A stretch of 64,000 bases of DNA from Clostridiales bacterium (lineage in GTDB: Bacteria; Bacillota; Clostridia; Christensenellales; UBA1242): the NCBI GenBank assembly GCA_015055515.1, contig SVIC01000001.1, positions 20,114 to 84,113 of the forward strand. Reading direction: 5' to 3'. The position numbers and the translations under genes are program-made. Shown here piece by piece: positions 13,293 to 63,585 of this stretch (its first letter is position 1; the number at the start of each line of letters is the position of its first letter). The notes under the pieces are model-generated. The model did not search any database. It had not been told where the DNA came from and was given only the letters and a program-made list of their open reading frames with translations.

Positions 13293-13300
13293 GGATAATA

Positions 13301-13337: not shown

Positions 13338-13442
13338 GTATACTTATAAAAGATTGCAATTTTTCAAATACTATAAATGTAGTATGAAATATTCGATGTT
13401 TCTGATAAAATGTAAGTAATAATATATTATTTGGTGAGAAGT

Positions 13443-15869: not shown

Positions 15870-15896
15870 AGATAGTAACAAATATTAATGCATTAG

Positions 15897-15938
15897 AAAA
15901 AATAACCTATTAGAATGTTATCTAATAGGTTATTTTTG
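15897..15938. terminator. Bidirectional terminator between convergent surface-protein genes
   Basis: Stem aataacctattaga / tctaataggttatt, with an A-run to the left and a T-run to the right. Confidence 0.72.
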
Positions 15939-15954
15939 TATTTCTATATAAAAG

Positions 15955-27856: not shown

Positions 27857-28363
27857 ATGAGAAATATAGTTGTTGGCGTGTTGTTGATACTGGTGTCTAT
27901 AGGACTAGTCGGGTGTTTTGGGATGAAAGATAATGAGGATATATTGAGAATACATATTAGAGCGAATTCCAATGAGGTGCAAGATCAAGATGTGAAATAC
28001 AAGGTGAAGGAAAGTGTTGTGAATTATCTAACGCCAAAGGTTGCTGGTTGTGAAAGTGTAGAGATGGTGATAGATGTATTAAATACTGATAAGTGTAATA
28101 TAGTTAAAGTTGTTAACAATGTCTTAATAGAGAATGGTTTTGATTATGGTTGTACGGTGGATATAAGAGAAGAGTATTTTCCAACCAGAGTCTATGAAGA
28201 GTGTACATTGGATGCTGATTTCTATGATGCCCTTATAATATCTCTTGGTAGTGGAGAAGGTGATAACTGGTGGTGTGTAGTGTATCCACCGTTGTGTTTT
28301 AAGGATACGAGAAATGTGGTATACAAATCAAAATTAATGGAGATAATTGGAAAATATTTTTAG
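27857..28363 (+). CDS. spoIIR: Stage II sporulation protein R
   Basis: After a signal peptide, the sequence contains LRIHIRANSNEVQDQDVKYKVKESV and GEGDNWWCVVYPPLCF. From memory these match B. subtilis SpoIIR (RLRILANSDSDQDQ... and GANWWCVLFPPLCF). Confidence 0.9.
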   Translation: MRNIVVGVLLILVSIGLVGCFGMKDNEDILRIHIRANSNEVQDQDVKYKVKESVVNYLTPKVAGCESVEMVIDVLNTDKCNIVKVVNNVLIENGFDYGCTVDIREEYFPTRVYEECTLDADFYDALIISLGSGEGDNWWCVVYPPLCFKDTRNVVYKSKLMEIIGKYF

Positions 28364-28383
28364 TGGATGTGGAGGCTTAAAAG

Positions 28384-29061
28384 ATGTTAAAAAATATATG
28401 TAGGCTAGATAATATTTTTGTTGCAATTGCATTAATTCTTATTACATTATTTTTGGTTGTAATGTCTAGTACCTTTGTTAAAGATGTTAGGTCGCTTTCA
28501 AAAGTGTTTGCATACACGGAATCGGAGACAATACAGATACAACAGAGCTTAAAAGAGTTGGGTTATTTTGATGAAGAGGTGACAGGGTATTATGGAAATA
28601 TAACTAGGCAGGCAGTGAAAGACTTCCAATACGATTATGGATTAAGTGTTACTGGAGAAGTAGATGGTGCTACTGCTTCGGCACTTGGTATACATCTGGG
28701 TAGTCAGCAAAGTAATGACTTATATATACTAGCAAAATGTATATATGCAGAGGCTAGAGGAGAAGTATATGAGGGTCAGGTTGCGGTAGGAGCAGTGGTA
28801 TTAAATAGGGTAGCAAGTCCTGATTTTCCTAATACAATATATGGTGTTGTATATCAACCATGGGCGTTCACATCAGTTAGTGATGGTCAGATGAATTTGG
28901 AGCCTAACGGTAGTGCGTATCAGGCTGCACAAGATGCGATAAATGGTTGGGATCCGACATATGGATGTCTGTATTATTATAATCCAGCAGTGGCTACTAG
29001 TAGTTGGATTTTTGATAGGACAACTGTGGTAACAATTGGTAATCATGTTTTTGCGATTTAG
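28384..29061 (+). CDS. sleB: Spore cortex-lytic enzyme SleB-like (PG_binding_1 + cell-wall hydrolase domain)
   Basis: PG-binding repeat: IQQSLKELGYFDEEVTGYYGNITRQAVKDFQYDYGLSVTGEVD. Hydrolase_2 motifs: YAEARGE..EGQVAVGAVVLNRV and QPWAFT. It is followed by ypeB. Confidence 0.9.
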   Translation: MLKNICRLDNIFVAIALILITLFLVVMSSTFVKDVRSLSKVFAYTESETIQIQQSLKELGYFDEEVTGYYGNITRQAVKDFQYDYGLSVTGEVDGATASALGIHLGSQQSNDLYILAKCIYAEARGEVYEGQVAVGAVVLNRVASPDFPNTIYGVVYQPWAFTSVSDGQMNLEPNGSAYQAAQDAINGWDPTYGCLYYYNPAVATSSWIFDRTTVVTIGNHVFAI

Positions 29062-29121
29062 TCTAATAATATTATAGTTTTGGCATTAAATAATTAGTTT
29101 ATGACAATAAATAGGTGGTGT

Positions 29122-30441
29122 ATGGAAAAAACATCGAAAAATAAATATATAATATCATTGGTAATATCTGCAATAATTGCGGTGGTGTCGCTAGTTATGC
29201 TGGGCGTTGTGTGGCAAGATAAAACGGTGTATAGAAATGCGTTAGAGAATAGATATCAGCATAGTTATATGAGCCTGATTGACAATGTGGATGATATAGA
29301 GGTTGGGCTTAGTAAATTGGTTGCTACTACCACTTATGAGTCGCAAAAAAACATAATGCAAACTGTATACACTAGTTGCGTTCTTGCTAGTGAAAATATT
29401 TCAAACATTCCAGTGAATTCTGATTCTCTAAGTAATGTAAATAAGTTGGTTAATAAAGTGGCTGGATATATTTATTCTCTAATTCAGAATGAGACAGTGG
29501 TGCAAGGTGAGGTATTAACCTCTATTGAGAATTTGCATAAAAGTGTGGCAGTTATAAAGTATGACATTAACAAAGGTTATGAAGACAATATTGCTCAATC
29601 CACAATTCTGTCAGATGTGACTAATACTGAAGATGGCTCTAGTTTTACGGCGGGTTTTGTGACTGGATCGGATTCTTATTCGGATGTGCCAACTTTGATA
29701 TATGATGGTCCTTTCTCAGAGAGTGTGATGAATAAGGAGCCAAAGTCGTTGCAAGAAAAAATATCACAAAATGAAGCATATGAAAAAGTGTCGCAATTGT
29801 CTCAAAATTGGTCTGGTTATGATGTAGAATATTTGGGCGAGACAAATGGAAAATTAGATACTTACAACTACCAGCTTGCTGGCGATAGAAGTATGTATGT
29901 ACAAGTGTTACAAAATGGTGGATTGCTATTATCTGTTACATCATATGGAAATTATGAAGGAGAGGCTTCAACAATAGAAGATGCGATAACTAAAGCTAAG
30001 GAGATTGCTTATAATTTTGGTTTCGATGGTATGATAGAAGTGTGGCATCAAGTTGTGGGGTCTATTGCGTATATCAATCTGGCATATGCGGAAGATGGAG
30101 TGGTGTATTACAGTGATTTGATTAAGGTAAAAATTGATCTGCGTGGTGGTGAATTAGTTGGCTGGGAAGCGACTAATTATATTTACAGTCATTATGATCG
30201 TGATGAGTATGTGGGTGTGATATCTATTCTGGATGCAGAAGATTTGCTTAGTGATAGTCTGGAGGTTGTTGAGAGAAGTTATTGTGTAGTGCCGAATGAA
30301 TATGTGGGAGAGAGTTGTGCGTACGAGTATGTGTGTACATGGTCAGGATATACCTATTATGTTTATCTTGATTCGACCATAGGTAAAGAACTGAATATTA
30401 TGAGGGTTATAGAGACTGATAACGGGGATCTCTTGGAATAA
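29122..30441 (+). CDS. ypeB: Germination protein YpeB-like
   Basis: N-terminal TM helix, a conserved position directly after sleB, and PepSY-like C-terminal repeats. The ATG at 29122 is preceded by AGGTGG. Confidence 0.78.
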   Translation: MEKTSKNKYIISLVISAIIAVVSLVMLGVVWQDKTVYRNALENRYQHSYMSLIDNVDDIEVGLSKLVATTTYESQKNIMQTVYTSCVLASENISNIPVNSDSLSNVNKLVNKVAGYIYSLIQNETVVQGEVLTSIENLHKSVAVIKYDINKGYEDNIAQSTILSDVTNTEDGSSFTAGFVTGSDSYSDVPTLIYDGPFSESVMNKEPKSLQEKISQNEAYEKVSQLSQNWSGYDVEYLGETNGKLDTYNYQLAGDRSMYVQVLQNGGLLLSVTSYGNYEGEASTIEDAITKAKEIAYNFGFDGMIEVWHQVVGSIAYINLAYAEDGVVYYSDLIKVKIDLRGGELVGWEATNYIYSHYDRDEYVGVISILDAEDLLSDSLEVVERSYCVVPNEYVGESCAYEYVCTWSGYTYYVYLDSTIGKELNIMRVIETDNGDLLE

Positions 30442-54700: not shown

Positions 54701-57700
54701 GTAGGATATATTGATACATCAGATGATGTTACTATTAAGATTACAAATGCAACTAACAATATTGCATTAGGTCACGCTACTAGCGTAGCGAATGCTGGTG
54801 GTATAGTTGGTGGCATGACAATGAATAATGGTGCTACTGCAGAATTTGTAGGCAATGTCAACAATGGTGATATCACAGCAAAAGAAAATGCTGGTGGTAT
54901 ACTAGGTAATGGAATAATTGCAGATAAGTATGAGAATAATTCCATTAAAGGAAACTCTATTGATAACAAGAATGGTATTATTAAGATTAAAGGAACTACT
55001 ACTGCTGATAAGCAGGTCATTGGTAATGGATTGACTATCAAGGCGGATAACGCTGGTGGTGTCGTTGGTAAAGTAGACTTGAAGACACCAGAAAGTTCAG
55101 ACAATGCTGATGTAAAACAATATTATGTGCTGGCATATATTACTAACTTCGATAACTATTATAAGGTAGGGTTCGTAAATATAACACAAGATGACCCAGA
55201 TACAGAAGACAAAAATGAATATAAGGTAGAGGGTACAACCACTGCTGGAGGTATTGCAGGACTATTAAGAGTATCTTATGTAGAGAATTGTGATAATCAT
55301 GGTAGTAGTATTACAGGTACATCTAGTATAGGTGGTATCGTTGGTCAAATGAATGGTAGACTTGTTACAAACTGTACTAATTATAGTGATATCAAGAATA
55401 GCACAAATGTGAATAATGTAGGTGGTATTGTTGGTGCAAACTCCATAGGCGGAATATCTGATTGTACTAACAAAGGAAAGATTGAGTCCAGTGCTAGTGC
55501 AGTAGGTGGAATAGCAGGTGGTGCAAACTCCAATCAGTCTAGATTAAAGGCAAATTCGACAGAATATGAGCTGATTTACGCATGGGATAATGTTGGTATA
55601 ATTAATTGTAAGAACTATGCAAATGTAATCAATACGAAGACATATGGAAATTCTGCAGGTGGTATTGTGGGATCTTCTAATGGTGGAATATTCAATAATT
55701 GCATAGTTGGTGATGAGTCTTCTGCTACTACCACAATAACCATATCTGCGTATAGTTATGCAGGCGGTATTGTAGGTGATATTGCAATGAATGGTTGGGT
55801 TGTAATAGGCGGAGTACAATTAAAAAATAATAAATTGTATGACAATATAACTATTGATTCTAAGAACTATGCTGGTGCTTCTGGTGGTATTGTTGGAACA
55901 ATATTAGTAGGAGCAGATATAAAGTTCAGTGGAGAGTCTTCTTATGAATCTGGTACAGATGAAATTGGAGGACTAAATGGAACTCTTTCTCATATTACTA
56001 ATGATACAACTTATACTATACCTAGTACTGTAAAGGTAATAGGTAGGGCAATAGGTGGTGTTGTAGGTATGGTAGATGTGGGTTCTAGAAAGGCCAATGA
56101 TAGTACATATAGTAATATCAAAGAAAACGCTATATTTGCACATATTAGCAAGTTTGTTAATGAAGCAACAATAGTTGGTAGAGTGGGACCATTTGAATTT
56201 GGAACAACTAGTTACAACAATGTTAAATCATTAGGAAAGGCATCATCTGGTGGTATTGCAGGATCATTAAGATGTAGTGTGGTAGAGAATTGTAGCAACA
56301 ATTCTAGTAATATTACGGCAGGAGATTATAAAATCAAAGAATCCGGTAGTACTGCTTATACCGATGTGTTCGGTGCAATTGGTGGAATAGTAGGCGAAAT
56401 GAATGGTAGATATATTGATGATTGTACGAATACTGGAGAGTTGAAAGGCTCGGGAAGCTGTATTTATGACAAAAATGATGATGGTACGGATAAGGAACAT
56501 CCTTATTCTGCATTGTCTGTAGGTGGTATAACTGGTAGAATAACCGTTGGATATATTACAGATTGTACTAACTTGGCTAGTATTACAGGACCAAACGATG
56601 TCGGTGGAATAGCAGGTGGTGCTATTCAACCAGTAGGTGATGGTACCTTGAGTGCCCCAGTAACGTATTCTTGGGCTAAAGTTAACGGGAATGGAGCAAT
56701 CATTCCATTCTCTGGTAATACAAATGGAAGAAGCGGTAGTGTTAATGGTATAACTATTACATCCACAGCTGGTAACGTTGGTGGTATATTCGGATCTGCT
56801 TCTACTGTTATAATATCTGCTACAACTATTAATTATGCAAAGATTGTAGGCGGTAATAATGCTGGTGGTATAATAGGTCTGGTTAGTGCAACATCGGATA
56901 TCACTGCCAACAACTCTGGTGCAGTATCTTCTACTAGTGGTTATGCCGCAGGAATTGTAGGATATATTTCTAGCGGTGCTTTGGCAGGAACAACTATTAA
57001 TGGTACTAATAGTGGAACAATAAATGGCAAGACTGAGGCTAATGTGACAGGCGATAAAGAAGACTGGATCTACAATCCTAGAATAAGGGTAACATTTGTT
57101 GTTGAGAACAATACAGATACATCTGGTGCGACAAGTGCATTTAAGATTACATTTAGCAATGTGAATGATATGTCTACGACAGGAAGTAATGTAACATTAA
57201 GCAATAATGGTACTACAAAACTCAGAGCAAATGGTACAATTACATTCACTATATCCAATTCTAATTCTTCAACTTATTCTAACAAAGTAAGGGTGAAAGG
57301 GCATTACGGGACGGCTAGTGCTATAGATGCTATAGCTGGAACAAGTGAAATAAGCTTGAAACTAGATGGGAATTCACATAATTATACAATCACATTGTTG
57401 GCTTCTTATTACTATTATGAGAGAACTAGAGATGGCGATAGTGGTGCTACAAAACACTCAACAAATTTGGTCTGTGGCACGACTCAGCATAGTCATGGAA
57501 CAAATTGTTATAAATATGTGTTGGATTGTAGTAATACAGAAGAAGGGCATGAGCATGGCGAAAGTTGTAATAAACGTGTATTAAATTGTACTAGTGCGCA
57601 TCATTCAAGCAGTTGCTATTGTAGTTATTTTGACTATACAACCACTGGAGAAAATAAATCTTCAGGGCATTATTCTAGCATGCCTAGTTACTCAATTAGA

Positions 57701-57766
57701 TGTGAATGTGGATCTTGGTCTAATTCCTCTACATATCAAAGTAAAGATCCATATTTTAGATGGTAG
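30629..57766 (+). CDS. Giant (9,045 aa) surface lipoprotein: Ig-like regions plus at least 7 GLUG-motif beta-helix-type modules and a C-terminal Cys/His-rich module
   Basis: Single uninterrupted 27,138-nt ORF with an RBS, promoter and terminator. It has a lipoprotein signal peptide. I counted roughly a hundred copies by eye of x-[VI]-G-G-[ILVF]-x-G-x-N-x-G-x-[IV]-x-[ND]. Module heads of the type I.t.eeL..i.....Y.L..DIDL....W.PIG...PF.G.F.GNG..I lie near 34235, 38860, 41160, 43735, 47390, 49230 and 51200. Confidence 0.9.
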   Translation: MGKFFRIVRRLICAVMVAFACTLSACSCGGGPYDNLKITDVRLVQYTSGHNNIDGSGDKPKVIMNNDANAGVSANYFYIEVVIDGYNGSEEALATIATSAGYDGYVKFHSYEYSTSGSSRVVRGVFEAIYGVENLSFDILTVEGMVSKVFNIEIIKPLDDFDFVQSVVPVIKGEANTIYEKYKSSKYIDFIPADSTQREVELYLDEADYLQGVELGGLNKDNFVISSGNGLIKLDYKMGEVVHNVLSINGGLLEVYNNDYVPNGFTLSARARLLNGSEVVEKCSVVVLDPIMPEDILVANKFTNDSNQDVRRLLDSLGVIDGVPTFRLLLANNAFSVPEYVKHKSANIQFGMLVDQTSNGYQTDEGKNMALIMNSGNLDVEAENLTESAIRCIRVDDNVGDNSCYKISHTVAISNSYNLDFRVYYSKYSKFFDGVTVRVVLEVCEYPDDIKLYEKNSAGVRAVDEVNVYSSYADYISGTQVIANVVSNEFDGELLSNTYTVKAVKKTGENSYEDVNSGIEFKHMASILVPGVTKVNSGEVVTISVKDKTLDFDDLYLCYEAEVGSGGYVVAKYIKLNYIAQELKWNDSVSNTIYVPFTSENIYNSDNAKQKYLSIPISNMASWAGSATNLYKNFVADINDTDRVVEGVDGNLYKLNIYTSVTNLNNRNVIKLNDNNHPNNIFVSDNVLSAENICEPKLNILFDAGENLGECQVELMLPNGRKTTFKLVVYYELPGDTWLTMGVDQADDEVVIKKDEEGVASVQLDALVGDKQTFDVNFNLPSGNKKYSLIELPTDMNATFETSNSKAGKFDDNGILTILGVYDFEVTITLNGFSAKREGGVITGKITDWNDVEKNKMTFTIKVNVESPVREIGLSNSKSSIFTKDTLNNYSNTGSTEFEDKGVSIYSLTDLTNGEDINGAFVKWTFDVISSSVGNDNGYSASWSLSMKKDNNGNDVYEFVGESSEYKGNINAKILNGYATRYILNYDIDNDQNVDFKIYVCIKDIQNIAIFVEYSASVSGIDNTNAEINIEVGAIVTPTYKHLDNSKYTAVLSKGVILSAQRNMRISSITPVLENSTVVFDLRNLQNGVDYDIVDNIRYVMRDTANTKKTFLYKLGLPQHYLADSINRSIVITKDVSNYSVVVDEVNQVVTVQLLSMPIPGTSGYVSPNYMTRLSAKGSQINEGSYSVSTTFRVVVEDGIANPYSIRNQADLQKIANSPTSNYVLASNIYLDSSYEPVGTKGVPFSGTISGAKILADGTKIIYSINNFTYRKTKSLTTASGDDNVYVGIFGYAMGAKFTDIKIYNANIDIDVSGGASDDNVYVGALVGYADKCIIQNIAVDDGNDIASIDGSALQKLSGRYKETVIKGNTNGIKVDSAEGQNTDVNAYVGHIAGKYYMTSDMQSTDVKAYGVLSSDILNARVGGLYGAVGTDSGVKASITYSSGNDSIVTKYANADVIVVINPASYNNILVGSCIGGAVGELGAGITVSNVTIRPIIFGKSNIGGVVGQNYGEVKDCKILPMLMGINSIGGVAGQNNGTLQYNKVQFIDQDDELSFMNSGLIGQHDMGSIVGANNGTVSYNSAYSYISDNISGYDGVSLLINTAGAYYGDILYYKSDNNYTGNANIGVLIGSSVSGATEKYNFAKFNYRSGAEVIAIGNVDSGSTSVIYVNGNGSDITNVPTSGIYSVESMNDKGYGSTAYANEKYYKYKKNDGNDSDIYVIREADVNGVNPIELTIDVPPTDIELEKPNISGDIYDVESSDYYIAISMYELLKDDLDGVSGKTDIEQVFIDYIKEVFKSENRYSLQDLVKINNLPSFVTDSSMVYTLAKGSEAIISVVQGESGLEIEAIGDGLAQIILTNIYNKELVANIYIQVNRKVSDFDISSLAEGANEDITIVKGASTKLSYNLLSQYYYANELVCQLYNAIDMMGNISARVGMRLFMLDGSNIYHTTDDINSYINDNYTEYFSINDLDFKYMQNVDGSNQYLIYVDIDSADACYIYGMEEVSGIGIYAIPYIYTSTGKDKAVLQYFYKWNADGTYNIIENASYEDGLGDKITLNVVKGTTGLSSLDISNVGTPKEATKFSVTMTTDNSDNSKLYFYISDNKNEYNIAGRDRITSIPSQIGGADFYSYVRDGKTIYFNDIYLYEVGIDLNESIAIFDKYQIKLLARKVEENKVTYNFQIEVLDQFKYDCKSSEQYVITFLTNYIIEEESAVEKIGSLRLGYTLMPQELESSDINHFNDVELKTYNVEEGVPTDGYDVNLDLASNTIVIGYNGLLQIDIYPGYANVDKVEITSTSIGGVYVDFEQLVEETTINIANDTSDKYVSRMFYTTYSKAEKERGKITLENITNVYEVNGERRYGFDGTYYVKTYIGNIVDESSNFVLTIKYYSDGNVIEEKTKSFVLYPVIPPTISATINQSKNAPIAIGTDAVIDIKTENMWEEFKVELSGTNGSTVASLNNALDTQNNHFNANEDVIKQMTDKGWLISVNGGYQLTLPVKYDESLIGKELTITMTVKKLINNKVYFAKTNIRIQLALFVVNSMQVDGVENGKFTGIFNQAYELRVNVNATYSKDQDENKTNYIKSQIKLLESRITSNGLDDVGENDIRATKTWFAQENNGQYTNLSIFKPRYGYVVENSYYNISYMSNSGVYENRNFSTLKFRNNILNTNDTIMAQTLIMYSPRDVYNDGASFSGVYVYSASDKGDMGANGTYIPDESDYKYSFSVEFTFNMQRLSNEENPTPVYTEEDLLEMVEGLPYILMEDIEVEDWKPLNTAISSLDGNGHVIRINSFANLEAGSTTAGLFGTISSDTIIKNLIIELPPNPLQMYQTLDPSASDILIDIGTTTQFNFGVVAGVNNGVITNTIVINNADNYRLERDQLLLKENKLSDAEFNERLTKYYYARVQELISEYSYYGARSLTQVRVKSTLEETSSTSIKIGGFVGVNNGFITNSAVEGVSISGPFYVGGFASDNTSKISSSYYKNGNVINNRGNAIQYSGTAGFVVNNSGDIAYSYVEGINTQANINVISGVVLNGEDVLVEYNTLTEQKNGLGNESLREYIGYEYGYVDELFDIRHFGNAVYSTKDSAGFVYNNTGDVNNSYSNIVVAGNSTAGFVYYNKDKATIDSAYSLSSIIRDNIKYSPFGARDSVTGATLNKGSITNAFFLKVSIEDYITLQEQDPSANVGDIIVDKSAYDDIKTDDEKAQYTEYIISKDSEGNDVKQYVKTVYEDRYKSTVVDGLSKGIYDFSDYETFNTFTFNEDKSNNGDSVAKSVWYIPTESMYDEGNTFDKYFKKSTYNINIPQLVSANLRTTSIKYGNFIDPLAKNASIEDIENTLVDDMAISMVGNIISYANDYYNNKVKGVNNDISLTNTKTIYLYAYLTNAYDNFAKNNNWAQDYQRVFYDELRDLRDANADFGYEIDLNISEGDINNVTHDYDGIFTFLKGKVEAKLDADLSNLNKDVEKMREILIAQINTVNQVDEGAESAYSYSNILKNAYDVELVYGDSVLNPYLIDSADDFNIYGLQINEEGVITTNQLDKSMRLVKDIAFGELNKSAQTYDVDFYGDLEGNNMSMSNIKLSAPTESDNSNVRKDFGLFRSLGKLDADDDTKYYATIRNMTLNVEYINANAIEKVGALAGSINYGRIYNVTINGASDNSTISGANVVGGLAGFIGGDTIISNIISNIDVTAKYLHSVSGIGVNLFDATNENIARRNTTIGTEVYQVVGGKLQLVTKANIDSDSGLEPSTAHQFNIYIPFSTKFSQIAYAGGIAGIIDVKDIETGVDDLEDTVYAVTGSKLTGKSVITGEVVGGLFGFAGYQVNIIGSEVDVETGMQLDSAGIAGGMVGHMLGSLDKSFVVNTTQSTMDATLYKNVNSASTTTHNYYNYYGNNSGEVTNFYGGNAHYIGGLIGMAHGAVITHSYNRVDVTNINSKYAGGIIGMAIGSYMDDVYTTASVYSYRAYGGTIGIQTKVATITAPGADATYMLENAYNTNGNNSNQVYHIYNQITYLDTFYDKKDPNDPAVIIAKAENKVASELKDVLEIDSLNSINLWKRDHKNIDRAQYGGAVAPRAYIGSFVGFVVSESGWITYPEISERVIKENAYFMQAFKYNGTQDSEYELLAEVGNAKNNYLSAMKDDKYIAQGQYFVMTMTESNRSILGQNIYTITTPDGKKVLEDGGIYSVSKIVHELELLYGVDKVKNAGTNPTEVNVIHYDVTNNALILRTSNQVYTIATFSHSISNTVNYKYNDVYQGYSGDIIISPTDQRSYRFSRVQQYGSLRTLKEFVTGTYLHSETSNMKYAYVVGSNVAQGGDMAVPTLNPVVPSVYTTWRKDVWNGVEVVNGVRVDASKYVFPSRRYLTYKNVIYVYEFQDLLDNTEQYPDATYILMNNIDMSDYNGNIPLNRNVPFSGVLKSNKLGGQYQNYVIYGMRVEGSANDTFGLFATVKGATFIGFKIAVDYVNIALTDSNGDDITTAGILFGNQDTDKRIRIQDVEILGEYNSNHRGIFQVSGANYVGGLFGKANNVSLIYTGNANGGLDYAVNRLSINVASVSTDDINIGGISGYINNRYDGLLINSVKTLDTEINVSLVLEGRIKKVNVGGIFGHAIAKDNITMSGCGVDVDANVQNNTIKQTVKVDNEDYTVVKNPGINMYLAGREGYQPEGNHKVLVGGLVGKSEIIMDNENNADALVTTNINVNNGTYRFKVFNNSEYNWNSPDNSYVSSKSDIAVGGVVGSVDYFGDDVVIINGVKAHANIKFSQVGDAIEGTKTYVGGAVGAIGAGFFGNEVGVKNINAIGVEGNIDVSVSGVSKNIYTGGIFGYLTNAGNVTESKSNVNISTKLNNGSEGVFLGGFVGHMEDKVEDNLSDTTIGGANDINATINVDVAENATTREIYVGNFAGKVNGMDSERLQISNLVAGGTVNLTGGTDSTLENSYISGFAGHATNVNLSQIATTGKILAEDNTLNITKSYLAGIVGYGEDFSLDQSFSNMTIAIYTRSDDATTIDIDESKLNTVGNHVGGLVGYIKLEGTGATPETVITDSYSAVFIDYDLANNNPTNASTITSEDETNNDASFIGGIIGQLDNYANNLILFDIDRVYSISNIPAITNYDYIKIYDEYNTIGGILGQSTAGKYTDASGTENDCPAYITSAFGSTYYNAELIPYSNYYGMAMGSDEMLFGNFADTYLSIGDGAGKWKQEINNSYPLLNWDNPVQVDGSRQNPIKTTATTVLEEEMSYIIDNEGILSASTNTASNIFYFNGHSISATQLFGTIDSKSIIVGVKSNSNGITIANENNGIIVSTYDNNNKIKVANTNNGVIHAYIASESGANSAYVVGENNGLISSSIVSTSVLPSSISNVSLSKIVYTSASGTLSFSGVYDTYIRQKGMEKVTYIDSNGTPKQFEKIAYDPNKIYATDISNFIISKNNDFTLDFDNVWTMFVVDGLSPADSNLRNNGAPMLRLEVKVRSGTGKWYYRDIDLYDYKYNYSDIDRNADNVIDDNDYVDTSKLYNRDIPYVSTAVYEQNKTMYGNYVWAYSMGTISGYEYYKVINGNTGEEEIHGLKSINNNIIPGSQITIDGDKIITITIKKPSELAWIAYMVNTGQFDFEGVTIIVGANIDLSGKMWTPIGTKVHPFKGSFNGGGYNQESGSMKIIHTISNLNIINADVAGLFGYVAPVENPAEINMFNISVNKGLVIATDTITTGNQVGGSAGSLIGAVVKGDANDLKYSVDFVVTRTNDYEMVLGYNTDVSIRETINNNLAKYVISDSDGVIFNMANINDLSDNKAYFVNDGGNPVVTKYSTTTNYVAIKDDGGRTIKLNGTETTDKYRIEQIGVECDIMKVCDPVDSKEHTLQVVGANAGGMVGYVSSGADVDIIRAENNTYVYSYTGVKNTGAMNYAGGIVGRAEGKLVNMSTIANQGDVYGLYAGGLIGYAKEAVLIENAYNSNGDVSDATAIKDINITTYDAINGGVGAFVGYMNYNVSAGALIANSRDAIIEESYSSTGNTNLVGEYVVDSTLGFDTNNDGVIDDKDVMYDKNADGTIDIADIDYSKVFKYVYVHSDNIENDNDPNTIDLNANEKSVFGKIEITGDETSGYTATYPEDDPDTTDVNEAKYNYLANDTFFTIKDFKNFAWGSIWHRDGSNTKYPVLMFAAGYWIDFATLPSTDNATANISTQIFDGTITQTEKNWYNSNNNTTFYIDRTSQLAWIARMTNAGFDFSGKTIVIRSNLSFAGKIWVAIGHADFDVMSGGKHNSSLTTTDYDTGMVKGSTYRPFKGSVVTATNPQTNIPYIMNMTSIRTVSFMSYYLSVNAEREDFVYKNEVNRKNELNKYSGLFGLTDNANISNISVGEGTVMDTVDGSQYVAGVVGYAYNTALTNISSSTNISYPVVSADENKYVLGGYIGQIAGYAEYSGVDLTSIDPGTNNPTANNLYNLSAYGSIDADAGSNIGGVFGRLYVSSTNKPIIQKMSSMVKIDYGYTLTDININYSASDMGGLIGSVGSTSDLLLYDMTVGVVDTQPTNSKVVSLSINSTKDISNIGGLVGSAVATTNSNIYLAKVSENTTISSTSNNVSNVAGLVGNANNVIITSQYDKVLAAIFLTGKTADIIHMVNVIDGIQPATTEYVLARYNDNASVRVYDYIITLTNGSIELSNGTNVGGMVGNANNVRVYGLVDATIEANANNGNKDYYTTYNIWLQSDKSVSVTTSGGNVGGIVGNYTDGDDSTGSSDYYTTNYVKLIRNISAISGTSGMYVGGIVGNASDIILIQGVINTGTITNGNGIAGNIADGSYILEAESSNGNAVYPATSDVIARNTKLNTTCVGNVSDSSVWDGDNIILYAIPEDKLGYTELNGVKYYTINNELDYLTAQKLHSMRVGGLSFTYLDADDNPITESGYQLVRGVSGNYINSDKFNLYFAEDFKLTVPSLNPMGSENFEYVGKVNGNGKTITISSDTKLTSIDGANTGIFGVLGENANLHNFIIKYTEDLSDTTSSIEKANVSSLVAKVSSNTNVVTITDIKVISEKIDNAGNVVPVTLVATSSNLGGIVAKADGDVTITNCNVSNITFINKNAGTNGGIIGADGGVLTISGGTLKNVTLDGGQYVGSVIGNMTNHNSSADGTILDNVTVSCDNNNTDSLSASANYGLLAGYVAGSISNIKTQQNTTSNLIVTGASSTTLSVGGIAGVVASSANVKDNVVSLTTGNAGGTSNGYAITGTANVNAGGLFGVVTMGSNTVSGNKISVDKIEVEGNEVYLGGVVSVIDSGNEELLGVTNTINKLSATQLSLNVGANTSYVGGIAGSLQPKGSDNPSVSQLSSVVGSATGVNDISIDVKSDSAYIGGLFGEMNNATYGAGVKIDNVSINNIDGANFAKTAYIGGVAGNIVGDSTISGVVNIGGNKLNITGGMSSGGLFGNVAGTLNITNAPTLGTITISNADNAGGLFGNVSGTVSASAISTIANTMTISGANAGAIAGSVSGNGNITFASNQVDIIDNTDNTITITGSTNAGMAFGVIEYTASINGQSNGIANIAISGGSVIGNSNVGGVVGRISGTTAVTFSNVSANSTGITASGITTNAGGIIGAINNGQTLTINTMGVSTTITGGGNAGGIVGNVAGMLTISSDPTLNAIKISNADNAGGLFGNVSGTVSASEISTIANTMTISGANAGAIAGSVSGSISFNATATNPLKISADDMEITGSANASMAFGVISDTAKVNSNTDRTVENISITNGAVISSSTANAGGLCGSVEGTNTIQLTNISVNSTKLYNKDGGGNIATSGNIGGVIGIVGSDQTVNISDIAINTTITGGSNAGGIVGNATEGSTIAMSSGTISDTINITGANTAGGVAGSVSGKMTFGSTDIQITATNIAITSTSNAGIAFGVITDTAMVNSNTAGTIQNVTITGGTVTSSNAGGVVGSITGDNAVTFSNVMVGGTTIIANASSASIGGMIGSAVNIIIINDTNNTNKFTSTTTIKVNDKDGSNANIQSVNLGGFVGKANCATITNVTNSNIATSIPEIANIVANLGGIVGYIDTSDDVTIKITNATNNIALGHATSVANAGGIVGGMTMNNGATAEFVGNVNNGDITAKENAGGILGNGIIADKYENNSIKGNSIDNKNGIIKIKGTTTADKQVIGNGLTIKADNAGGVVGKVDLKTPESSDNADVKQYYVLAYITNFDNYYKVGFVNITQDDPDTEDKNEYKVEGTTTAGGIAGLLRVSYVENCDNHGSSITGTSSIGGIVGQMNGRLVTNCTNYSDIKNSTNVNNVGGIVGANSIGGISDCTNKGKIESSASAVGGIAGGANSNQSRLKANSTEYELIYAWDNVGIINCKNYANVINTKTYGNSAGGIVGSSNGGIFNNCIVGDESSATTTITISAYSYAGGIVGDIAMNGWVVIGGVQLKNNKLYDNITIDSKNYAGASGGIVGTILVGADIKFSGESSYESGTDEIGGLNGTLSHITNDTTYTIPSTVKVIGRAIGGVVGMVDVGSRKANDSTYSNIKENAIFAHISKFVNEATIVGRVGPFEFGTTSYNNVKSLGKASSGGIAGSLRCSVVENCSNNSSNITAGDYKIKESGSTAYTDVFGAIGGIVGEMNGRYIDDCTNTGELKGSGSCIYDKNDDGTDKEHPYSALSVGGITGRITVGYITDCTNLASITGPNDVGGIAGGAIQPVGDGTLSAPVTYSWAKVNGNGAIIPFSGNTNGRSGSVNGITITSTAGNVGGIFGSASTVIISATTINYAKIVGGNNAGGIIGLVSATSDITANNSGAVSSTSGYAAGIVGYISSGALAGTTINGTNSGTINGKTEANVTGDKEDWIYNPRIRVTFVVENNTDTSGATSAFKITFSNVNDMSTTGSNVTLSNNGTTKLRANGTITFTISNSNSSTYSNKVRVKGHYGTASAIDAIAGTSEISLKLDGNSHNYTITLLASYYYYERTRDGDSGATKHSTNLVCGTTQHSHGTNCYKYVLDCSNTEEGHEHGESCNKRVLNCTSAHHSSSCYCSYFDYTTTGENKSSGHYSSMPSYSIRCECGSWSNSSTYQSKDPYFRW
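52790..54480 (+). repeat. Three tandem intragenic repeat units (period 594 nt = 198 aa) inside the giant gene
   Basis: The core 52909-53048 and the core 53503-53642 are 140 nt long and differ at only 3 positions. The offset is exactly 594 nt, so it is in frame. A third, more diverged unit lies around 54100-54300 (gcatttggtgtgata recurs at about 53141, 53727 and 54245). Confidence 0.85.
57470..57763 (+). other. C-terminal Cys/His-rich module of the giant protein
   Basis: The sequence VCGTTQHSHGTNCY-KYVLDCSNTEEGHEHGESCN-KRVLNCTSAHHSSSCYC...IRCECGSW carries three C-x(4-7)-H-x-H-x(3-4)-C-like units plus extra Cys residues. The protein ends in ...DPYFRW. Confidence 0.6.
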
Positions 57767-57804
57767 TATTGAAGTTGTTTTAATTTTAATATTTACTAAA
57801 AAAT

Positions 57805-57839
57805 AAAGGTATTTTGCAATTTTGCAAAGTACCTTTTTT
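57805..57839 (+). terminator. Rho-independent terminator of the giant gene
   Basis: Stem aaggtattttgcaa / ttgcaaagtacctt (one G-U pair) followed by T6. Confidence 0.78.
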
Positions 57840-57877
57840 AATACAATAATAAGTGTAATTGCACTTATTATTGTATT
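57840..57877. repeat. Perfect 16-bp inverted repeat (aatacaataataagtg-N6-cacttattattgtatt)
   Basis: Read directly from the sequence. It abuts the terminator and is not followed by a T-run. Confidence 0.8.
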
Positions 57878-57976
57878 AAATGTTGCTGTATATGAAATAG
57901 ATGAGTATATGTAAGTTAAAAAAATTGAGAAAAAGAGGATATATGAATGGTGTGTTATCGTGATTACATTTGCCTA

Positions 57977-58005
57977 TTGAAATACATAAGTGTATATGAT
58001 ATAAT
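57977..58005 (+). promoter_or_regulatory. Strong promoter of the three-paralogue cassette (TTGAAA-17 nt-TGaTATAAT)
   Basis: TTGAAA lies at 57977-57982. A 17-nt spacer ending in TG at 57997-57998 precedes TATAAT at 58000-58005. The AGGAG RBS is at 58024-58028. Confidence 0.62.
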
Positions 58006-58037
58006 ATACTAAGGATAATGTGTAGGAGAATCTATAA

Positions 58038-59114
58038 ATGGAAAATAATATAAATAGATTAACAGCAAATGAATATGTGTTAATAGAGGACATCTTAAGA
58101 TACAGATGCCCGGAGAATGTTGTGCCATTACAAGAAATGCAAGTAGCAAAAGTGATTGCTCTAGCAGAGTATTATTTAGGCAAAAATGATATGAATAATA
58201 ATATTGACAAGTCGGAAAAAGATCATTTCTACTATGATACATTAAGGGATACAATATATGTAAGAGATGGGATATTCGCGGACGAAAAACGTTATGCAGC
58301 AGATATGATTTCTCTGGCACATGAGGTGTGTCATAGTGCCGATCTTAAAACGGTGAAAGACTGGAAATATATTGTAGAGGGTGCTATGTTCAATGCAAAT
58401 AACCAAAAGAAAATGGTTAATCTAGTGGGCAGAGTATTGAGAAAAAAAGGAATATATAAAGATATAGATACTAAAAAAGCAAGATTTCATGAAAACAAAG
58501 TGAAAGATTATTTTTTAACAAAATATTGGGATACTAATCAAGAACGTACGGCAAGGACTTTTGCGATGGATTTTGTAGGCAAAATTGTAGATTATTGGGA
58601 TAGTGAATGCACAAGTATTCCAGAGGACAGCATAGAATACAAGGTAATGAGCAGAAATGCAGAGGCTATGCGAAGAGAATTATACATATCGAAACTGGAA
58701 GAAAGAAGAAAAGATATTGAGATAGAGCGTTTTGCAGAATCTGATAATACATATATGAAATATGCTAAGGCGATACAAGACTACTATACGACATCTAAGA
58801 ATGGCGAGCCATCATTATTAAATAAAATATGTCAGATGAATGAAGATGGATTTCTTGAATTGGTAAAGACAGATTGTAATCCATTAGATGATATATTTTC
58901 TACAATTAAATTCTTACCTAGAAAAGAAATTGCATATACAGTGGCAATGGAAATATCTCAAGCAAAAACGGTGCAAAGAGAAGAACATTTAATTATGTTA
59001 AGAGATGTAATGTGTTGTGTTGGATTAGACAAGGATGATGATCTAATTAATCTTGTTTCAGACAATATTGATCGTAGTAGGGATCGTGATGGGGTGACGA
59101 TAGATGAGGGATAA
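58038..59114 (+). CDS. Putative zincin-like (HExxHxxD) cytoplasmic protein, paralogue 1 of 3
   Basis: 358 aa. Motifs LAHEVCHSAD and, downstream, NQERTARTFAMDF. No signal peptide. Its stop overlaps the next start by 11 nt. Confidence 0.7.
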   Translation: MENNINRLTANEYVLIEDILRYRCPENVVPLQEMQVAKVIALAEYYLGKNDMNNNIDKSEKDHFYYDTLRDTIYVRDGIFADEKRYAADMISLAHEVCHSADLKTVKDWKYIVEGAMFNANNQKKMVNLVGRVLRKKGIYKDIDTKKARFHENKVKDYFLTKYWDTNQERTARTFAMDFVGKIVDYWDSECTSIPEDSIEYKVMSRNAEAMRRELYISKLEERRKDIEIERFAESDNTYMKYAKAIQDYYTTSKNGEPSLLNKICQMNEDGFLELVKTDCNPLDDIFSTIKFLPRKEIAYTVAMEISQAKTVQREEHLIMLRDVMCCVGLDKDDDLINLVSDNIDRSRDRDGVTIDEG

Positions 59115-60147
59115 AATACTAGATGCAATAATTAGTTATAAACCAACTAGAAATGAGAGGAAGAATGAAGCGCATAGAAAAATGGTGTTGTCTATGGTGT
59201 TCAATGACTTGCAATACTCTGATGCTAGTAAGGTACTAATATGTGAACACGAAATAGATGGCGGAGATGAGGCATGCGCGTATCCAGAAACGAATAGAAT
59301 AGCAATCAAGGATACGTTGTTCACCCCAGATGCCAATTATGCTATTAACCTAATGACACTATGGCACGAAGGGTATCATATAGTGGACTGCAATAGTCAT
59401 AATATAGGAGATAATTATGGTATTGAGAATGGAAAATATTCTAGGCTTTGCGGGTCTACATTCGATGATTTTATTAGTAGAGTTGTCTGTGGAAAGGGAT
59501 TGTATAAAGGTGTAGTAAGTGTAGGCGAGTATGATGATGTGGAAGATGTAAAGTCAAAGGCTGGAGCATATGCTTATAGCAAATATTACTTAGTGCCAGC
59601 AGAGAAAAAGGCAAGATCGTACGCTATGCAAACAATGCAAAAAGTTCTTGATTACGCCGATAGTAAGAAATGGCATAATAAGCAAGCAAAGTCAAATATA
59701 GATGCGATGAGAAAATGCCTTGCTAAAGAAAGGGATGTTGATAAAAGGCGAGAAGAGGCAACAGAGAAGATTAACTATATATACGATAGTGCAATAAAAG
59801 ATATTATGACTAGGGCGACACATTTCTTGACATCTAATGATCCAGATGGCAAGTGCATACTAGATAAGGTATCACAAATGGATGAGGCGGAGTATGTAGT
59901 ATTTGCTAACGAGAATGGCAATGTGTATGAGGATGTGGCATCCACGCTTATATTAGACAATAGTGAAAAAGTGGCAAATAGGCTAGTCTTGGCAGTAGAA
60001 GATTCTAAGCATAAGCAGTGGAAAGATGCCGACTATGCATTAAAGTTAACAAATTATATAATGGGTTGGACGCCTAGCGAGAAGCAATTCATTAGATCTA
60101 TGGAAGAGTGGAAAAGAGAGATAATGGAGCAAGAGATTGGATGCTAA
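59104..60147 (+). CDS. Putative zincin-like (HExxHxxD) cytoplasmic protein, paralogue 2 of 3
   Basis: 347 aa. Motifs LWHEGYHIVD and AEKKARSYAMQT. It aligns with paralogues 1 and 3 along its whole length (YKPTRNE / YKPCRRG; ILDKVSQMDEAEYV / IMDKVSTMEIEDYV). Confidence 0.7.
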   Translation: MRDKILDAIISYKPTRNERKNEAHRKMVLSMVFNDLQYSDASKVLICEHEIDGGDEACAYPETNRIAIKDTLFTPDANYAINLMTLWHEGYHIVDCNSHNIGDNYGIENGKYSRLCGSTFDDFISRVVCGKGLYKGVVSVGEYDDVEDVKSKAGAYAYSKYYLVPAEKKARSYAMQTMQKVLDYADSKKWHNKQAKSNIDAMRKCLAKERDVDKRREEATEKINYIYDSAIKDIMTRATHFLTSNDPDGKCILDKVSQMDEAEYVVFANENGNVYEDVASTLILDNSEKVANRLVLAVEDSKHKQWKDADYALKLTNYIMGWTPSEKQFIRSMEEWKREIMEQEIGC

Positions 60148-60161
60148 AATAAGGAGGATAT

Positions 60162-61208
60162 ATGACAACAGAGCAAGAAGCGATGATGATATCATTGTTA
60201 AAATACAAGCCATGTAGGCGTGGTGATGAGAGCAAGTACGCTACAGCCATGGCTATGTCTTTGGCATTTGATTTGTTAGGATATGCACATACATCCGAAC
60301 TTAATATAGCCTATATTCCTGAAAGCGCGCCAGAAGAGGCAAATGCAAGACCGCACAAGAATGAGCTATGTATAAAGCAATCTATGTTAACTAATAAGAA
60401 GAAATATGCGATCAATATTGAGACTATAATGCACGAGTGCTATCATATATATGATATGTATGACGATATTGCAAATGTAAGGAACGGTGCAAGGTGTTCT
60501 AGGTTGGTATTAAGTGATTTTCATAAATTTTTTGCAAAAGTTATCACTGGTGAGGGGATATATAACGGGCTAATTGTAGGTGGTGAGGCTGAGTGTGTAG
60601 CAGATATACAAGATATCATACAAGGATATACATCCAGTGAATATGTGATGTGTAAGCAAGAAGTAGATGCAAGAGAGTTCTCTAATAGTGTACTTAATCA
60701 AATGGTGGAATGTGCTAAGAATGCAAAATCTCTAAATAGAAGGGCTAGGAAGAATGCGAAACAGATAGAGGAGTTTATCAAAAATAATCCATATAATAAT
60801 CCAAAATTAAAAGACAATGCAAATGGTATAATGTATGAATATGGCGGTATGATAGAAGATATAGTAGATAGGGTTGTTCAATTCATGACAGCAGAGGATG
60901 AGATGGGTGACAATATTATGGACAAAGTATCTACGATGGAAATAGAAGATTATGTAGAGTTCAAAAAAAATAATGGAAATATATTCGGTGACATGTTGAC
61001 TTGCTTGTATTTGCAAGACAACAAAGATCTAGCAGACAAGATGAGGGGTGCAATAGTAAAGTCTAATAAGGTGCAAATGTTTGATAATGCTAAGTACCTA
61101 GAAGATGTATCATTCATGTATGAAGAAATGACAAGTGAAGAGAAAAATATGATACAGGAAGTACAAAAGAGTTGGGATATGCTAACTAGTAGCGGATTGG
61201 AACATTAA
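60162..61208 (+). CDS. Putative zincin-like (HExxHxxD) cytoplasmic protein, paralogue 3 of 3
   Basis: 348 aa with an AAGGAGG RBS. Motifs IMHECYHIYD and EVDAREFSN. Confidence 0.7.
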   Translation: MTTEQEAMMISLLKYKPCRRGDESKYATAMAMSLAFDLLGYAHTSELNIAYIPESAPEEANARPHKNELCIKQSMLTNKKKYAINIETIMHECYHIYDMYDDIANVRNGARCSRLVLSDFHKFFAKVITGEGIYNGLIVGGEAECVADIQDIIQGYTSSEYVMCKQEVDAREFSNSVLNQMVECAKNAKSLNRRARKNAKQIEEFIKNNPYNNPKLKDNANGIMYEYGGMIEDIVDRVVQFMTAEDEMGDNIMDKVSTMEIEDYVEFKKNNGNIFGDMLTCLYLQDNKDLADKMRGAIVKSNKVQMFDNAKYLEDVSFMYEEMTSEEKNMIQEVQKSWDMLTSSGLEH

Positions 61209-61224
61209 TAGACTTAATAAGTAA

Positions 61225-61250
61225 AAAAGTGCGAAATTTCGCACTTTTTT
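61225..61250. terminator. Bidirectional terminator (paralogue cassette / cwlD)
   Basis: Palindromic stem aaaagtgcgaaatttcgcactttt flanked by A-runs and T-runs. Confidence 0.75.
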
Positions 61251-61268
61251 GTATGTTTGCAATATACT

Positions 61269-61979
61269 CTAATTATTAGAGATGTGGTCCCTCATATCAA
61301 AATATTTTAGTATTCCACAAGTGATGGCATAGGCAAGTTTGTTCTGATAACCTTCCGATGTAAGTAGTTGTTCTTCCTCTGGATTAGTGAGGTATCCGCA
61401 CTCAATAAGCACTGCGTGGGTTTTGGATTCTTTTAGGATATAATAGTCGCCATAATTGGCCTCAGATCTGGCGTTAGGAATCTGTGATACTAGCATAGAT
61501 TGTATGGATTTGGCTAGGTTTTCGCTATTAATATCTCCTTCTTGCCAGAATGCTTGGGCTCCGATAGCGTGGCTATTTGGATAAGAATTTTGATGAATGC
61601 TGACCACAAAATCGGCATTTGCACTATCTATTATCTCTATACGCTTCTCCATGTCGCTAACCTTGTAATTATCTGCATTGTCTTCGTACAAGCCATTAGC
61701 ATCGCTTCTAGTGAGCACGACCTTGAAGCCAAAATCTTCTAGAAGATCTTGCAATAGTAGTACTATACTTAGGTTAATCTCTGCTTCGGTTATATTAGTA
61801 TTTACTCCACTACAACCATTGTCTCTACCGCCATGTCCAGCATCAAGTACTATTGTGTATGGTAGATAGGGCGACTGTCCTATTTCACTGACAGCGACTA
61901 TACCTAGGCTAAGAATTAGGCTGATTACAATAATACAAAATATGGTTATAATAGTTTTTGCTTTTATTACTTTTATCAT
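61269..61979 (-). CDS. cwlD: N-acetylmuramoyl-L-alanine amidase (Amidase_3), CwlD-like germination-specific amidase
   Basis: N-terminal TM helix, then IVLDAGHGGRDNGCSG, VSIHQNS and HAVLIECGYLTNPEEE. The ATG at 61979 is preceded by GGAGAG; the track ORF extends to 62132. About 236 aa, typical of CwlD. Confidence 0.8.
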   Translation of the reverse strand: MIKVIKAKTIITIFCIIVISLILSLGIVAVSEIGQSPYLPYTIVLDAGHGGRDNGCSGVNTNITEAEINLSIVLLLQDLLEDFGFKVVLTRSDANGLYEDNADNYKVSDMEKRIEIIDSANADFVVSIHQNSYPNSHAIGAQAFWQEGDINSENLAKSIQSMLVSQIPNARSEANYGDYYILKESKTHAVLIECGYLTNPEEEQLLTSEGYQNKLAYAITCGILKYFDMRDHISNN

Positions 61980-62134
61980 ATACTCTCCATAAAAATATAA
62001 TATAGTATATTGTTTAGGGTAAGACAATAATACTTTTTCAAAAAAATATTTGGGATATGACAAGTGTATAATTAATTGGAATACTTGCATGACTTTCTTA
62101 AATGGTATATAATAAATGTATAAGGAGAGCATAT

Positions 62135-62704
62135 ATGGGAAGAGAAGATGTTACAAAAATTGCTAATGAATTGGTAAAGACAAGAGAACAATACAATATT
62201 GCTAGCGAGGCAGAACAACAATCTTTGTTGACTAAGGGAGAAGAACTAGATAATCAGTTAGGTGAAAATTTGTCCAAGTTGTCAATTGCTGATCAATTTG
62301 AATTGATGCATGATCTGTATGATCCAACCAATGTGCATATGAGTAAGCCTGCGGTGGAATATGCACCAGTTATGAAAAAGGTTATAGAGAATATATCAAC
62401 TAATTTCTTAGATAACCCAAGAAATCTTAATTTCTTAGATCCTTGTTTTTTAACAACAGAGGTGGTTGAGCAAATGTCAATGGATCAATTAATATTATTA
62501 GAGAATTATATTTCTAACGGAAAAGTGGCGCATGTTGGTAGTAGAGGTGCTATCTTAGCGTCGCAAGAAAAGCAAAAAGAAATGCTAGGGGTTATAGGTA
62601 AAGAAATTCAAAGTTTGCAAAAAGATGTAATGGATAGCGGTGTATTGGGGGATAGAACAAAACTAAGCCCAGAAATATTAAATGAGAATTCAAGAGAGAT
62701 ATAA
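62135..62704 (+). CDS. Hypothetical cytoplasmic protein (189 aa)
   Basis: The ATG at 62135 is preceded by AAGGAG at 62122-62127. No motif recognised. Confidence 0.6.
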   Translation: MGREDVTKIANELVKTREQYNIASEAEQQSLLTKGEELDNQLGENLSKLSIADQFELMHDLYDPTNVHMSKPAVEYAPVMKKVIENISTNFLDNPRNLNFLDPCFLTTEVVEQMSMDQLILLENYISNGKVAHVGSRGAILASQEKQKEMLGVIGKEIQSLQKDVMDSGVLGDRTKLSPEILNENSREI

Positions 62705-62967: not shown

Positions 62968-63585
62968 ATGTCGGATATTGCAAAAAATTTAGAATTAATA
63001 GAGTTTGATGACTATGCGAGAAGGGAGATGACTAGACTATCTAGGATGGGTACGCACGAGTCTCTATATATTACTCCAAGTGGTAAATTAATAGATTGTA
63101 GATTTCCAGAATACCTTGGTCATGCCAAGGTTGGTGCTATGATATATGATAATATATGGAAGTTGAATGAAAGGGAGTCTGATAGTAGAGCATTCAAGTC
63201 TTGTATTATAGAATATATGGATAAGGATCAAAAGGTAGACGTAGAGGATGTAAAGGCAATATTACTAGAGAATGCGGGAATACCTAATGAGGTGGATCAA
63301 TTCAGCATTGATATGAAGAGAAAGGACTTAAATATAGAAGATTTGCCGGTGCATGATCTAGGATTCGTAAAAATGGTAATTAACTCTGATGGCGATGTGA
63401 GTCTAGCGATTCCTAATAATATGTATAATTATAGGAATGTAAAAGCAGCCCAAGAAGAGACTATAGAGAACTTGCTAGAATTCCATAAGGTAAAGAATTT
63501 CTATCTTCCTACACATCTACAAATGGCAAAAATGATGCAATCCAGAGAAAGAAACAATGTAAGAGATCTATATCATTCTATGTAA
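62968..63585 (+). CDS. Hypothetical cytoplasmic protein (205 aa)
   Basis: Clean ORF with its own RBS, promoter and terminator. No motif recognised. Confidence 0.6.
   Translation: MSDIAKNLELIEFDDYARREMTRLSRMGTHESLYITPSGKLIDCRFPEYLGHAKVGAMIYDNIWKLNERESDSRAFKSCIIEYMDKDQKVDVEDVKAILLENAGIPNEVDQFSIDMKRKDLNIEDLPVHDLGFVKMVINSDGDVSLAIPNNMYNYRNVKAAQEETIENLLEFHKVKNFYLPTHLQMAKMMQSRERNNVRDLYHSM

Follow-up and report, generated by a model that had tools for sequence, protein, structure and literature searches.

A rare, putative gluzincin-like protein family encoded in tandem beside a giant lipoprotein gene of a Clostridia-type bacterium

Introduction

In a 64,000-nucleotide stretch of a Clostridiales bacterium contig (SVIC01000001.1; the whole stretch is called the window below), a giant gene (30629-57766, forward strand) encoding a protein of 9,045 amino acids is directly followed by a cassette of three genes, termed A, B and C. 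This arrangement raises two questions, namely what kind of proteins the cassette encodes and whether they serve the giant protein, which is their conserved neighbor and proposed partner. The production, control and export of bacterial proteins of approximately 9,000 residues are poorly understood, and a giant-linked enzyme family would provide a testable handle on these processes in Christensenella-like gut bacteria. The giant begins with a lipoprotein-type signal (…LSAC), as read by eye, and its last ~250 amino acids form a Cys/His-rich module that ends in FRW and is referred to here as the tip. The explanation that best accounts for all observations, to which a probability of roughly 45% is assigned, is that the cassette encodes gluzincin-type enzymes which are soluble, reside in the cytoplasm and have the giant protein as substrate or partner. 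The two parts of this explanation differ in strength. The enzymatic nature of the family is probable, while its functional link with the giant lipoprotein, once that nature is granted, is evenly balanced.

The three-gene cassette

The open reading frames (ORFs) of A (58038-59114; 358 amino acids, with the ribosome-binding site taggaga upstream), B (59104-60147; 347 amino acids) and C (60162-61208; 348 amino acids) are all located on the forward strand, and the first two overlap by 11 nucleotides (59104-59114). The encoded proteins are true paralogues. BLASTP alignments cover nearly their full length and were obtained for A and B (E = 5e-16, 23% identity), B and C (E = 5e-47, 28% identity) and A and C (E = 3e-5, 18% identity); C belongs to the B type. 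The motifs HEVCHSAD of A (residues 95-102; nucleotides 58320-58343), HEGYHIVD of B (residues 88-95; 59365-59388) and HECYHIYD of C (residues 91-98; 60432-60455) share one block of alignment columns and follow the pattern HExxHxxD. A second shared block, ExxARx[FY], is found in aligned columns 70-75 residues past the second His and reads ERTARTF in A (58542-58562), EKKARSY in B (59602-59622) and EVDAREF in C (60660-60680). Neither a transmembrane segment nor a signal peptide was detected in A, B or C, as the maximal mean Kyte-Doolittle hydropathy over 19 residues stays below 1.0, and a search of the whole window with a hidden Markov model of the family revealed no fourth copy. Most of these features had been described by an initial annotation made from the DNA alone, which listed three consecutive full-length paralogues with an overlapping first pair, two motifs kept in all three and the lack of signal peptides and transmembrane helices; the ORFs, the pairwise BLASTP comparisons, the aligned columns and the hydropathy scan bear it out.

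The same annotation had proposed one shared promoter and one terminator, and suitable elements are present at both ends of the cassette. The predicted sigma-70-type promoter (57977-58005, forward strand) consists of TTGAAA and TATAAT separated by 17 nucleotides, carries the TG of an extended -10 element, matches at 11 of 12 positions and is the top-scoring site across positions 57600-61400. Downstream of C, a hairpin (61222-61250; -15.1 kcal/mol, z-score -6.1, with none of 200 shuffled sequences being as stable) is flanked by an A-run on one side and a U-run on the other; it closes the operon and probably serves the convergent cwlD-like gene as well. The giant gene has a terminator of its own, a hairpin with a U-run located between the giant and the cassette (57805-57842, forward strand; -17 kcal/mol, z-score -5.1), and the cassette is therefore a separate transcription unit. 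A perfect 17-bp hairpin (57840-57877; -18.9 kcal/mol, z-score -7.2) that has no U-run is situated between this terminator and the cassette promoter.

The selection acting on each copy was assessed with a second strain (L003, 93% nucleotide identity) that carries the same three genes. This reference was used because synonymous sites are saturated among the paralogues themselves, which share 18-28% amino acid identity. The ratios of nonsynonymous to synonymous substitution rates calculated by the Nei-Gojobori method were 0.155 for A, 0.236 for B and 0.178 for C, which indicates purifying selection on each copy and identifies all three as live genes. In the same strain, the public gene call of the B orthologue (P0001, 317 amino acids) starts 30 codons inside an ORF of 347 amino acids (L003 positions 1105-2148). 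As this longer ORF is intact there and the N-terminus is conserved family-wide, the public annotation of P0001 is probably too short.

Family breadth and conservation

Scans of A, B, C and their relatives against Pfam, NCBIfam, PHROG and PADLOC returned nothing significant. For Pfam, this includes the three proteins at E<=1 and all 33 aligned family members at E<=0.01; profile searches against the sequences of the PDB found no zincin, and literature searches yielded no account of this family or locus. A profile search of all 1.84 billion cluster representatives obtained 35 proteins at E<=1e-3, nearly all of them 350-390 amino acids long. Word-indexed searches of 5.8 billion proteins produced just two to three relatives, family scans of GTDB genomes recovered a single contig (L001, see below) and a scan of JGI metagenomes gave no match to the family.

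The alignment of 33 sequences contains two invariant residues, E89 and E167 in the numbering of B, while H88, H92, Y161, A170, F173 and A291 are conserved in at least 90% of the sequences. The initial annotation had made its zincin reading depend on conservation of the HExxH residues in orthologues, and 31 of the 33 family members keep this motif. The downstream block takes the family-wide form ExxA[RN]xF and is opened by E167. Gluzincins (clan MA(E)) are classically recognized by HExxH together with a downstream ExxAxxF. Only the giant-linked clades have the Asp of HExxHxxD; in other members, this position is mostly occupied by Gln, and it is thus not conserved family-wide. Two distant members, P0021 and P0036, lack a zinc-binding His (KEIRM and YEIKH, respectively) but retain the downstream Glu, and are possible pseudo-enzymes.

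Predicted fold and enzyme identity

The full-length AlphaFold2 model of B (predicted local distance difference test score, pLDDT, 81; predicted template modelling score, pTM, 0.74) combines an N-terminal alpha/beta domain with a C-terminal half made up entirely of helices, one of them 50 residues long. A fold search of the PDB with this model returned mainly generic helical folds, 14-3-3 and TPR proteins among them, and zincins appeared only faintly. As helical proteins swamped the full-length search, the N-terminal domain was modelled and searched alone. The model of the N-terminal 192 amino acids of B, built with 31 sequences, reached a pLDDT of 89 and a pTM of 0.83. In order, it consists of two helices, three strands (45-48, 57-60 and 65-68), a helix with the HExxH motif (79-98), three inserted helices and a helix at 165-187. 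The last helix opens at E167, the candidate third zinc ligand.

In a Foldseek search of the PDB with the N-terminal domain, the top ten matches were all minigluzincins (selecase, 4qhf and 4qhi; projannalysin, 4jix; proabylysin, 4jiu), with probabilities of 0.84-1.0, E-values of 0.05-0.4 and template modelling (TM) scores of approximately 0.5 over the target. The following PDB matches were an aspzincin, the lethal factor N-domain, PprI/IrrE, SPRTN, the HExxH domain of ChlB, BlaR1, ACE, LTA4H and VgrG2b. In BFVD, IrrE-like, SprT-like and M48 phage proteins were matched. The TM scores over the query were 0.3-0.5, and the best E-values amounted to 0.05 in the PDB and 0.011 in BFVD. The consistency of these hit lists supports a zincin fold. 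For the gluzincin spacing logic that had been suggested initially, this means that conserved HExxH and downstream Glu residues and a zincin-like model are in place, while no match reached E<1e-3; likewise, the Foldseek comparison that had been proposed, carried out on B, placed zincins and minigluzincins in the lead with PDB E-values of 0.05 at best. On the basis of the conserved motifs and the model, A, B and C probably constitute a family of soluble gluzincin-like metalloenzymes that is both new and rare. They are most likely peptidases, and a cytoplasmic location, zinc binding and peptidase activity are predicted for them.

The closest structural relatives are the minigluzincins, soluble minimal models of the catalytic domains of M48 and M56 peptidases. 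They share with A, B and C their solubility and, by the model of B, the plan of a sheet followed by the HExxH helix and the Glu helix. In contrast to the ~110 residues of minigluzincins, A, B and C are ~350 residues long, and they have a helical insert of 70-75 residues between HExxH and the Glu as well as an extra ~160-residue helical C-terminal domain; there is no sequence similarity between the two groups. Membership in the minigluzincins was rejected, as the proteins of 347-358 amino acids have two domains, profile searches against PDB sequences gave no match and the similarity is confined to the core fold.

The initial annotation had pointed to the anthrax lethal factor/ATLF type (PF07737, MEROPS M34), and lethal factor chains do appear in the fold lists. 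Lethal factor has an HExxHxxD-type motif and a downstream ExxAxxF-type Glu helix, like those read or predicted in A, B and C. As membership, this likeness does not hold: PF07737 was not matched by any of the 33 family members and lethal factor structures were retrieved with probabilities of 0.06-0.13, which leaves shared gluzincin logic as the source of the similar motifs. Unlike lethal factor, A, B and C have neither a secretion signal nor a toxin context, and the Asp after HExxH is not a constant feature of their family.

Proteins of the ImmA/IrrE (PprI) type, family M78, are likewise cytoplasmic zincins with HExxH and a downstream ExxA[NR]xF. IrrE-N-like phage proteins match the N-terminal domain with a probability of up to 1.0 (E = 0.03), and PprI (8sln) is present in the PDB list with a probability of 0.14. 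The cassette proteins differ from them in a much longer spacing between HExxH and the Glu, in a different C-terminal domain and in having no partner helix-turn-helix repressor in the window. Membership in this family (PF06114) was also rejected, as there was no Pfam match, no helix-turn-helix gene adjoins the cassette in the window and the structural resemblance is weak.

The match to the HExxH domain of the oxygenase ChlB (8s5f) opens another route to the giant, in which the HExxH domain would be a metal-dependent modifying enzyme that alters the Cys/His-rich tip before export. The tip is conserved alongside the family, and the proteins look cytoplasmic. Nevertheless, the probability of the 8s5f match (0.12-0.20) is much lower than those of the minigluzincin peptidases, an invariant Glu as third ligand, set in an ExxAxxF helix, is the mark of gluzincin peptidases and no co-substrate-binding motif was identified. 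A modifying enzyme of this kind is thus regarded as very unlikely.

Association with giant genes in other genomes

The neighborhood of the cassette was compared with that of its relatives. On the window's own contig (JGI locus L015), the giant and A-B-C are followed by the cwlD-like gene (reverse strand), ORFs of 189 and 205 amino acids, an 801-residue NHL/SH3 protein gene (reverse strand), a sigma factor gene, an SH3 gene (reverse strand) and terL. The same layout is seen in L001, where the giant precedes two paralogues, the A-type P0003 (A1) and the B-type P0002, whose genes overlap by 32 nucleotides, and in L012/L013, where it precedes three (P0016, P0013 and P0014). In L019, the giant is followed by an ORF of 152 amino acids and one family member, P0012; the flanking genes are spoVT-like, murJ-like, hup, dus, pgk and tpi, and no phage genes are present. 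This position on the chromosome differs from the one occupied in the window, L001 and L012. The 152-residue ORF (L019 positions 5340-5798) shares 41 nucleotides with the 3' end of the giant gene, has no Pfam match and is not a family member. Accordingly, the giant link, which had been suspected from the gene neighborhood of a single locus, is found in four lineages, distributed over two chromosomal sites, each time with the family directly 3' of a giant that bears the tip.

The tip itself (the last 250 amino acids) is one homologous module in these four lineages, with 64% identity between the window and L001 and 27-32% in the other pairs. The body of the giant is 29-44% identical between the window and L001. 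The giant of L012 is 28-33% identical to that of the window, and the giant of L019, of which at least 1,792 amino acids are seen, shows 30% identity over 1,534 amino acids. A reverse search with the tip in JGI metagenomes and IMG/VR gave no match. No Pfam domain was found in the 7,200 amino acids of the giant that were scanned; the GLUG label given to it initially was not reproduced, as PF07581 was not called within this part.

Between the window and L001, the amidase is 81% identical, while the giant (43.5%), A (35%) and B (45%) have diverged to a similar degree; C has no counterpart in L001. Between L012 and L001, terL (77%) and the portal gene (75%) contrast with the giant (~28%) and the paralogues (20-28%). 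A rough neighbor-joining tree has the topology (A,A1),((B,B1),C), and the L012 trio and a tandem pair at another locus (L006) each form a group of their own, which indicates that tandem expansion occurred repeatedly. The paralogues A and B separated long ago, are not redundant with each other and have both been kept by a related genome; each may have its own sites of action, or the two may form a hetero-complex.

A functional link between the family and the giant is argued from three observations taken together, as the neighborhood is kept at two sites, it persists through divergence to 20-30% identity and the paralogues evolve at a rate similar to that of the giant. Combined with the predicted fold, these observations favor the reading of A, B and C as cytoplasmic gluzincin-type enzymes that act on or with the giant. 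A strong vegetative-type promoter of their own would drive the three genes, with A and B being translationally coupled. In the architecture predicted from B, the N-terminal domain of ~190 residues would be catalytic, with HExxH supplying two zinc ligands and the general base. The invariant Glu of ExxARxF, at the start of the "glutamate helix" and preceded by a helical insert of ~70 residues, would serve as the third ligand, and the all-helical C-terminal domain of ~160 residues would probably be responsible for substrate selection or assembly. Family members may then act on or with the giant before or during its export, for instance by processing the precursor, controlling its quality or turning it over.

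A number of observations weigh against this enzymatic role in giant biogenesis. No fold match was obtained at E<1e-3, and the searches of Pfam, NCBIfam and PDB sequences gave no sequence-level link to known peptidase families. The giant has an export-type lipoprotein signal and the paralogues look cytoplasmic, so any direct action would have to come before export. Cassette and giant form separate transcription units. Furthermore, a single bacterial order may comprise all four giant-linked lineages, in which case part of the adjacency could be inherited synteny. Finally, three distant family loci have no giant: P0035 (L005) follows pepF/pyrG and P0007 with its second tandem copy (L006) follows secA, both without a giant upstream, and P0020 (L017) has no giant within 10 kb upstream. 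The initial annotation had held that widespread homologues without linkage to giants would speak against a partnership. The family has turned out to be rare and giant-linked in four lineages, and these three loci show that the linkage is not complete.

Several of these points can be read in favor of a different explanation, in which the same gluzincin-like enzymes have no functional tie to the giant and constitute an independently expanding cytoplasmic protease family, with the adjacency reflecting inherited synteny within one order. The cassette promoter and the giant's terminator are in line with it, as are the distant members in the housekeeping contexts of L005 and L006 and at L017; in L006, moreover, tandem duplication took place without a giant upstream. 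This explanation does not account well for the persistence of the adjacency at the second, unrelated site of L019 or through the divergence of both partners, nor for paralogues that diverge approximately like the giant next to a far better conserved amidase. It is considered possible but rather unlikely, and in that case the family would be a modest addition to the catalogue of uncharacterized zincins.

A layout of diverged genes directly 3' of a giant surface protein had also suggested, in the initial annotation, the logic of polymorphic toxins, with the paralogues as an immunity array against a toxic C-terminal tip. Their cytoplasmic appearance, the independent origin of diverged tandem arrays in several lineages and the fast evolution relative to neighboring genes would fit. 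However, the tip is neither polymorphic nor swapped, being the one module conserved in all four lineages and more similar between the window and L001 than the giant body, and the best-conserved residues of the paralogues form a metal-binding or catalytic motif, which is unexpected in a pure binding protein. In addition, ~350 amino acids are large for immunity proteins, no immunity match was obtained with PADLOC or Pfam, and both the terminator behind the giant and the promoter of the cassette separate the two units. Members also exist without giants. The conserved tip, the conservation of a catalytic-type motif, the separate promoter and the giant-free members disfavor the immunity model, which we judge to be very improbable.

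A more specific version of the favored enzymatic reading can be envisioned, in which the paralogues work in the cytoplasm and are dedicated to the maturation of the ~9,000-residue lipoprotein adhesins of spore-forming gut Clostridia, with different paralogues cleaving or modifying the conserved Cys/His-rich tip or other sites in the precursor before export. This proposal is speculative and, in its full detail, unlikely. If true, it would describe a previously unknown system for the maturation of giant adhesins that is based on a new zincin family. In concept, it is reminiscent of LapG, a periplasmic cysteine protease of Gram-negative bacteria that acts on the giant adhesin LapA, the common idea being a dedicated protease that is encoded near a giant surface adhesin and acts on it; fold, compartment and regulation are unrelated. 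With the family assigned as proposed above, the gluzincins would gain a new and very rare family with an unusual insert and a helical C-terminal domain.

Chromosomal setting and the adjacent prophage-like block

The window contains rplJ/rplL, nusG, rplK/rplA, lgt and a RelA-like gene upstream of the giant, and genes for SpoIIR, SleB and YpeB (27857-30441) directly before it. The convergent gene behind the cassette (61269-61979, reverse strand) encodes an amidase whose best match is CwlD (TIGR02883), with 181.7 bits and thus below the curated cut-off of 221.6. These flanking housekeeping and sporulation genes identify the window as part of the chromosome of a spore-forming Clostridia-type bacterium and not of a phage. 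The giant and its cassette are situated between spoIIR-sleB-ypeB and the cwlD-like amidase gene, as if inserted into a spore-cortex/germination cluster, whereas in L019 the corresponding pair is found beside a spoVT-like gene and a gene for a murJ-type flippase.

A phage origin had to be considered because terL and a portal gene are located downstream of the cassette in L001. According to this explanation, the cassette would belong to the adjacent prophage-like element and encode anti-repressors of the ImmA/IrrE type or phage accessory proteases. A sigma factor with a weak RinA match, SH3 proteins, terL and the portal gene are indeed encoded ~5-8 kb downstream in the window's contig, L001 and L012, IrrE-like and SprT-like phage proteins are among the BFVD matches and an XRE-type helix-turn-helix gene adjoins P0035 in L005. 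The terL gene encodes a real terminase, with IMG/VR relatives of 55-83% identity, some of them at 78-83%. However, the viral contigs with these relatives carry neither a family member nor a giant, and the family is absent from 50,697 phage genomes (INPHARED) and from the IMG/VR scans. In L019, giant and family member occur together away from any phage gene, no repressor gene is found beside the cassette in the window, and the immediate neighbors are chromosomal sporulation genes (spoIIR, sleB, ypeB and the gene of the CwlD-like amidase). The phage reading was rejected on account of the sporulation flanks, the lack of viral carriers and the phage-free L019 locus, and its probability is considered to be very small indeed.

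The prophage-like block itself (L015 positions 10671-16332) begins ~5 kb past the 3' end of the window and comprises the genes for the 801-residue NHL/SH3 protein, the sigma factor with its weak RinA-family match, the SH3 protein and terL. The genes between terL/portal and the giant are far more diverged between L001 and L012 than terL and the portal gene (75-77%). The start of the block is probably to be placed near the sigma factor and SH3 genes, downstream of the cassette.

A few further ORFs of the window were recorded. An ORF of 200 amino acids (62102-62704) has no family match, is not conserved in L001 and overlaps a long 5' extension of the amidase ORF, the real start of which is probably near 61979. 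The next ORF (62968-63585, 205 amino acids) also has no family match and shows 55% identity to its counterpart in L001. Upstream of the giant, the products of two ORFs (13431-15869, 812 amino acids; 15955-17010, 351 amino acids) have hydrophobic N-terminal stretches as judged by eye, and a third ORF (18357-20849) encodes a Lys/Asn-rich protein of 830 amino acids.

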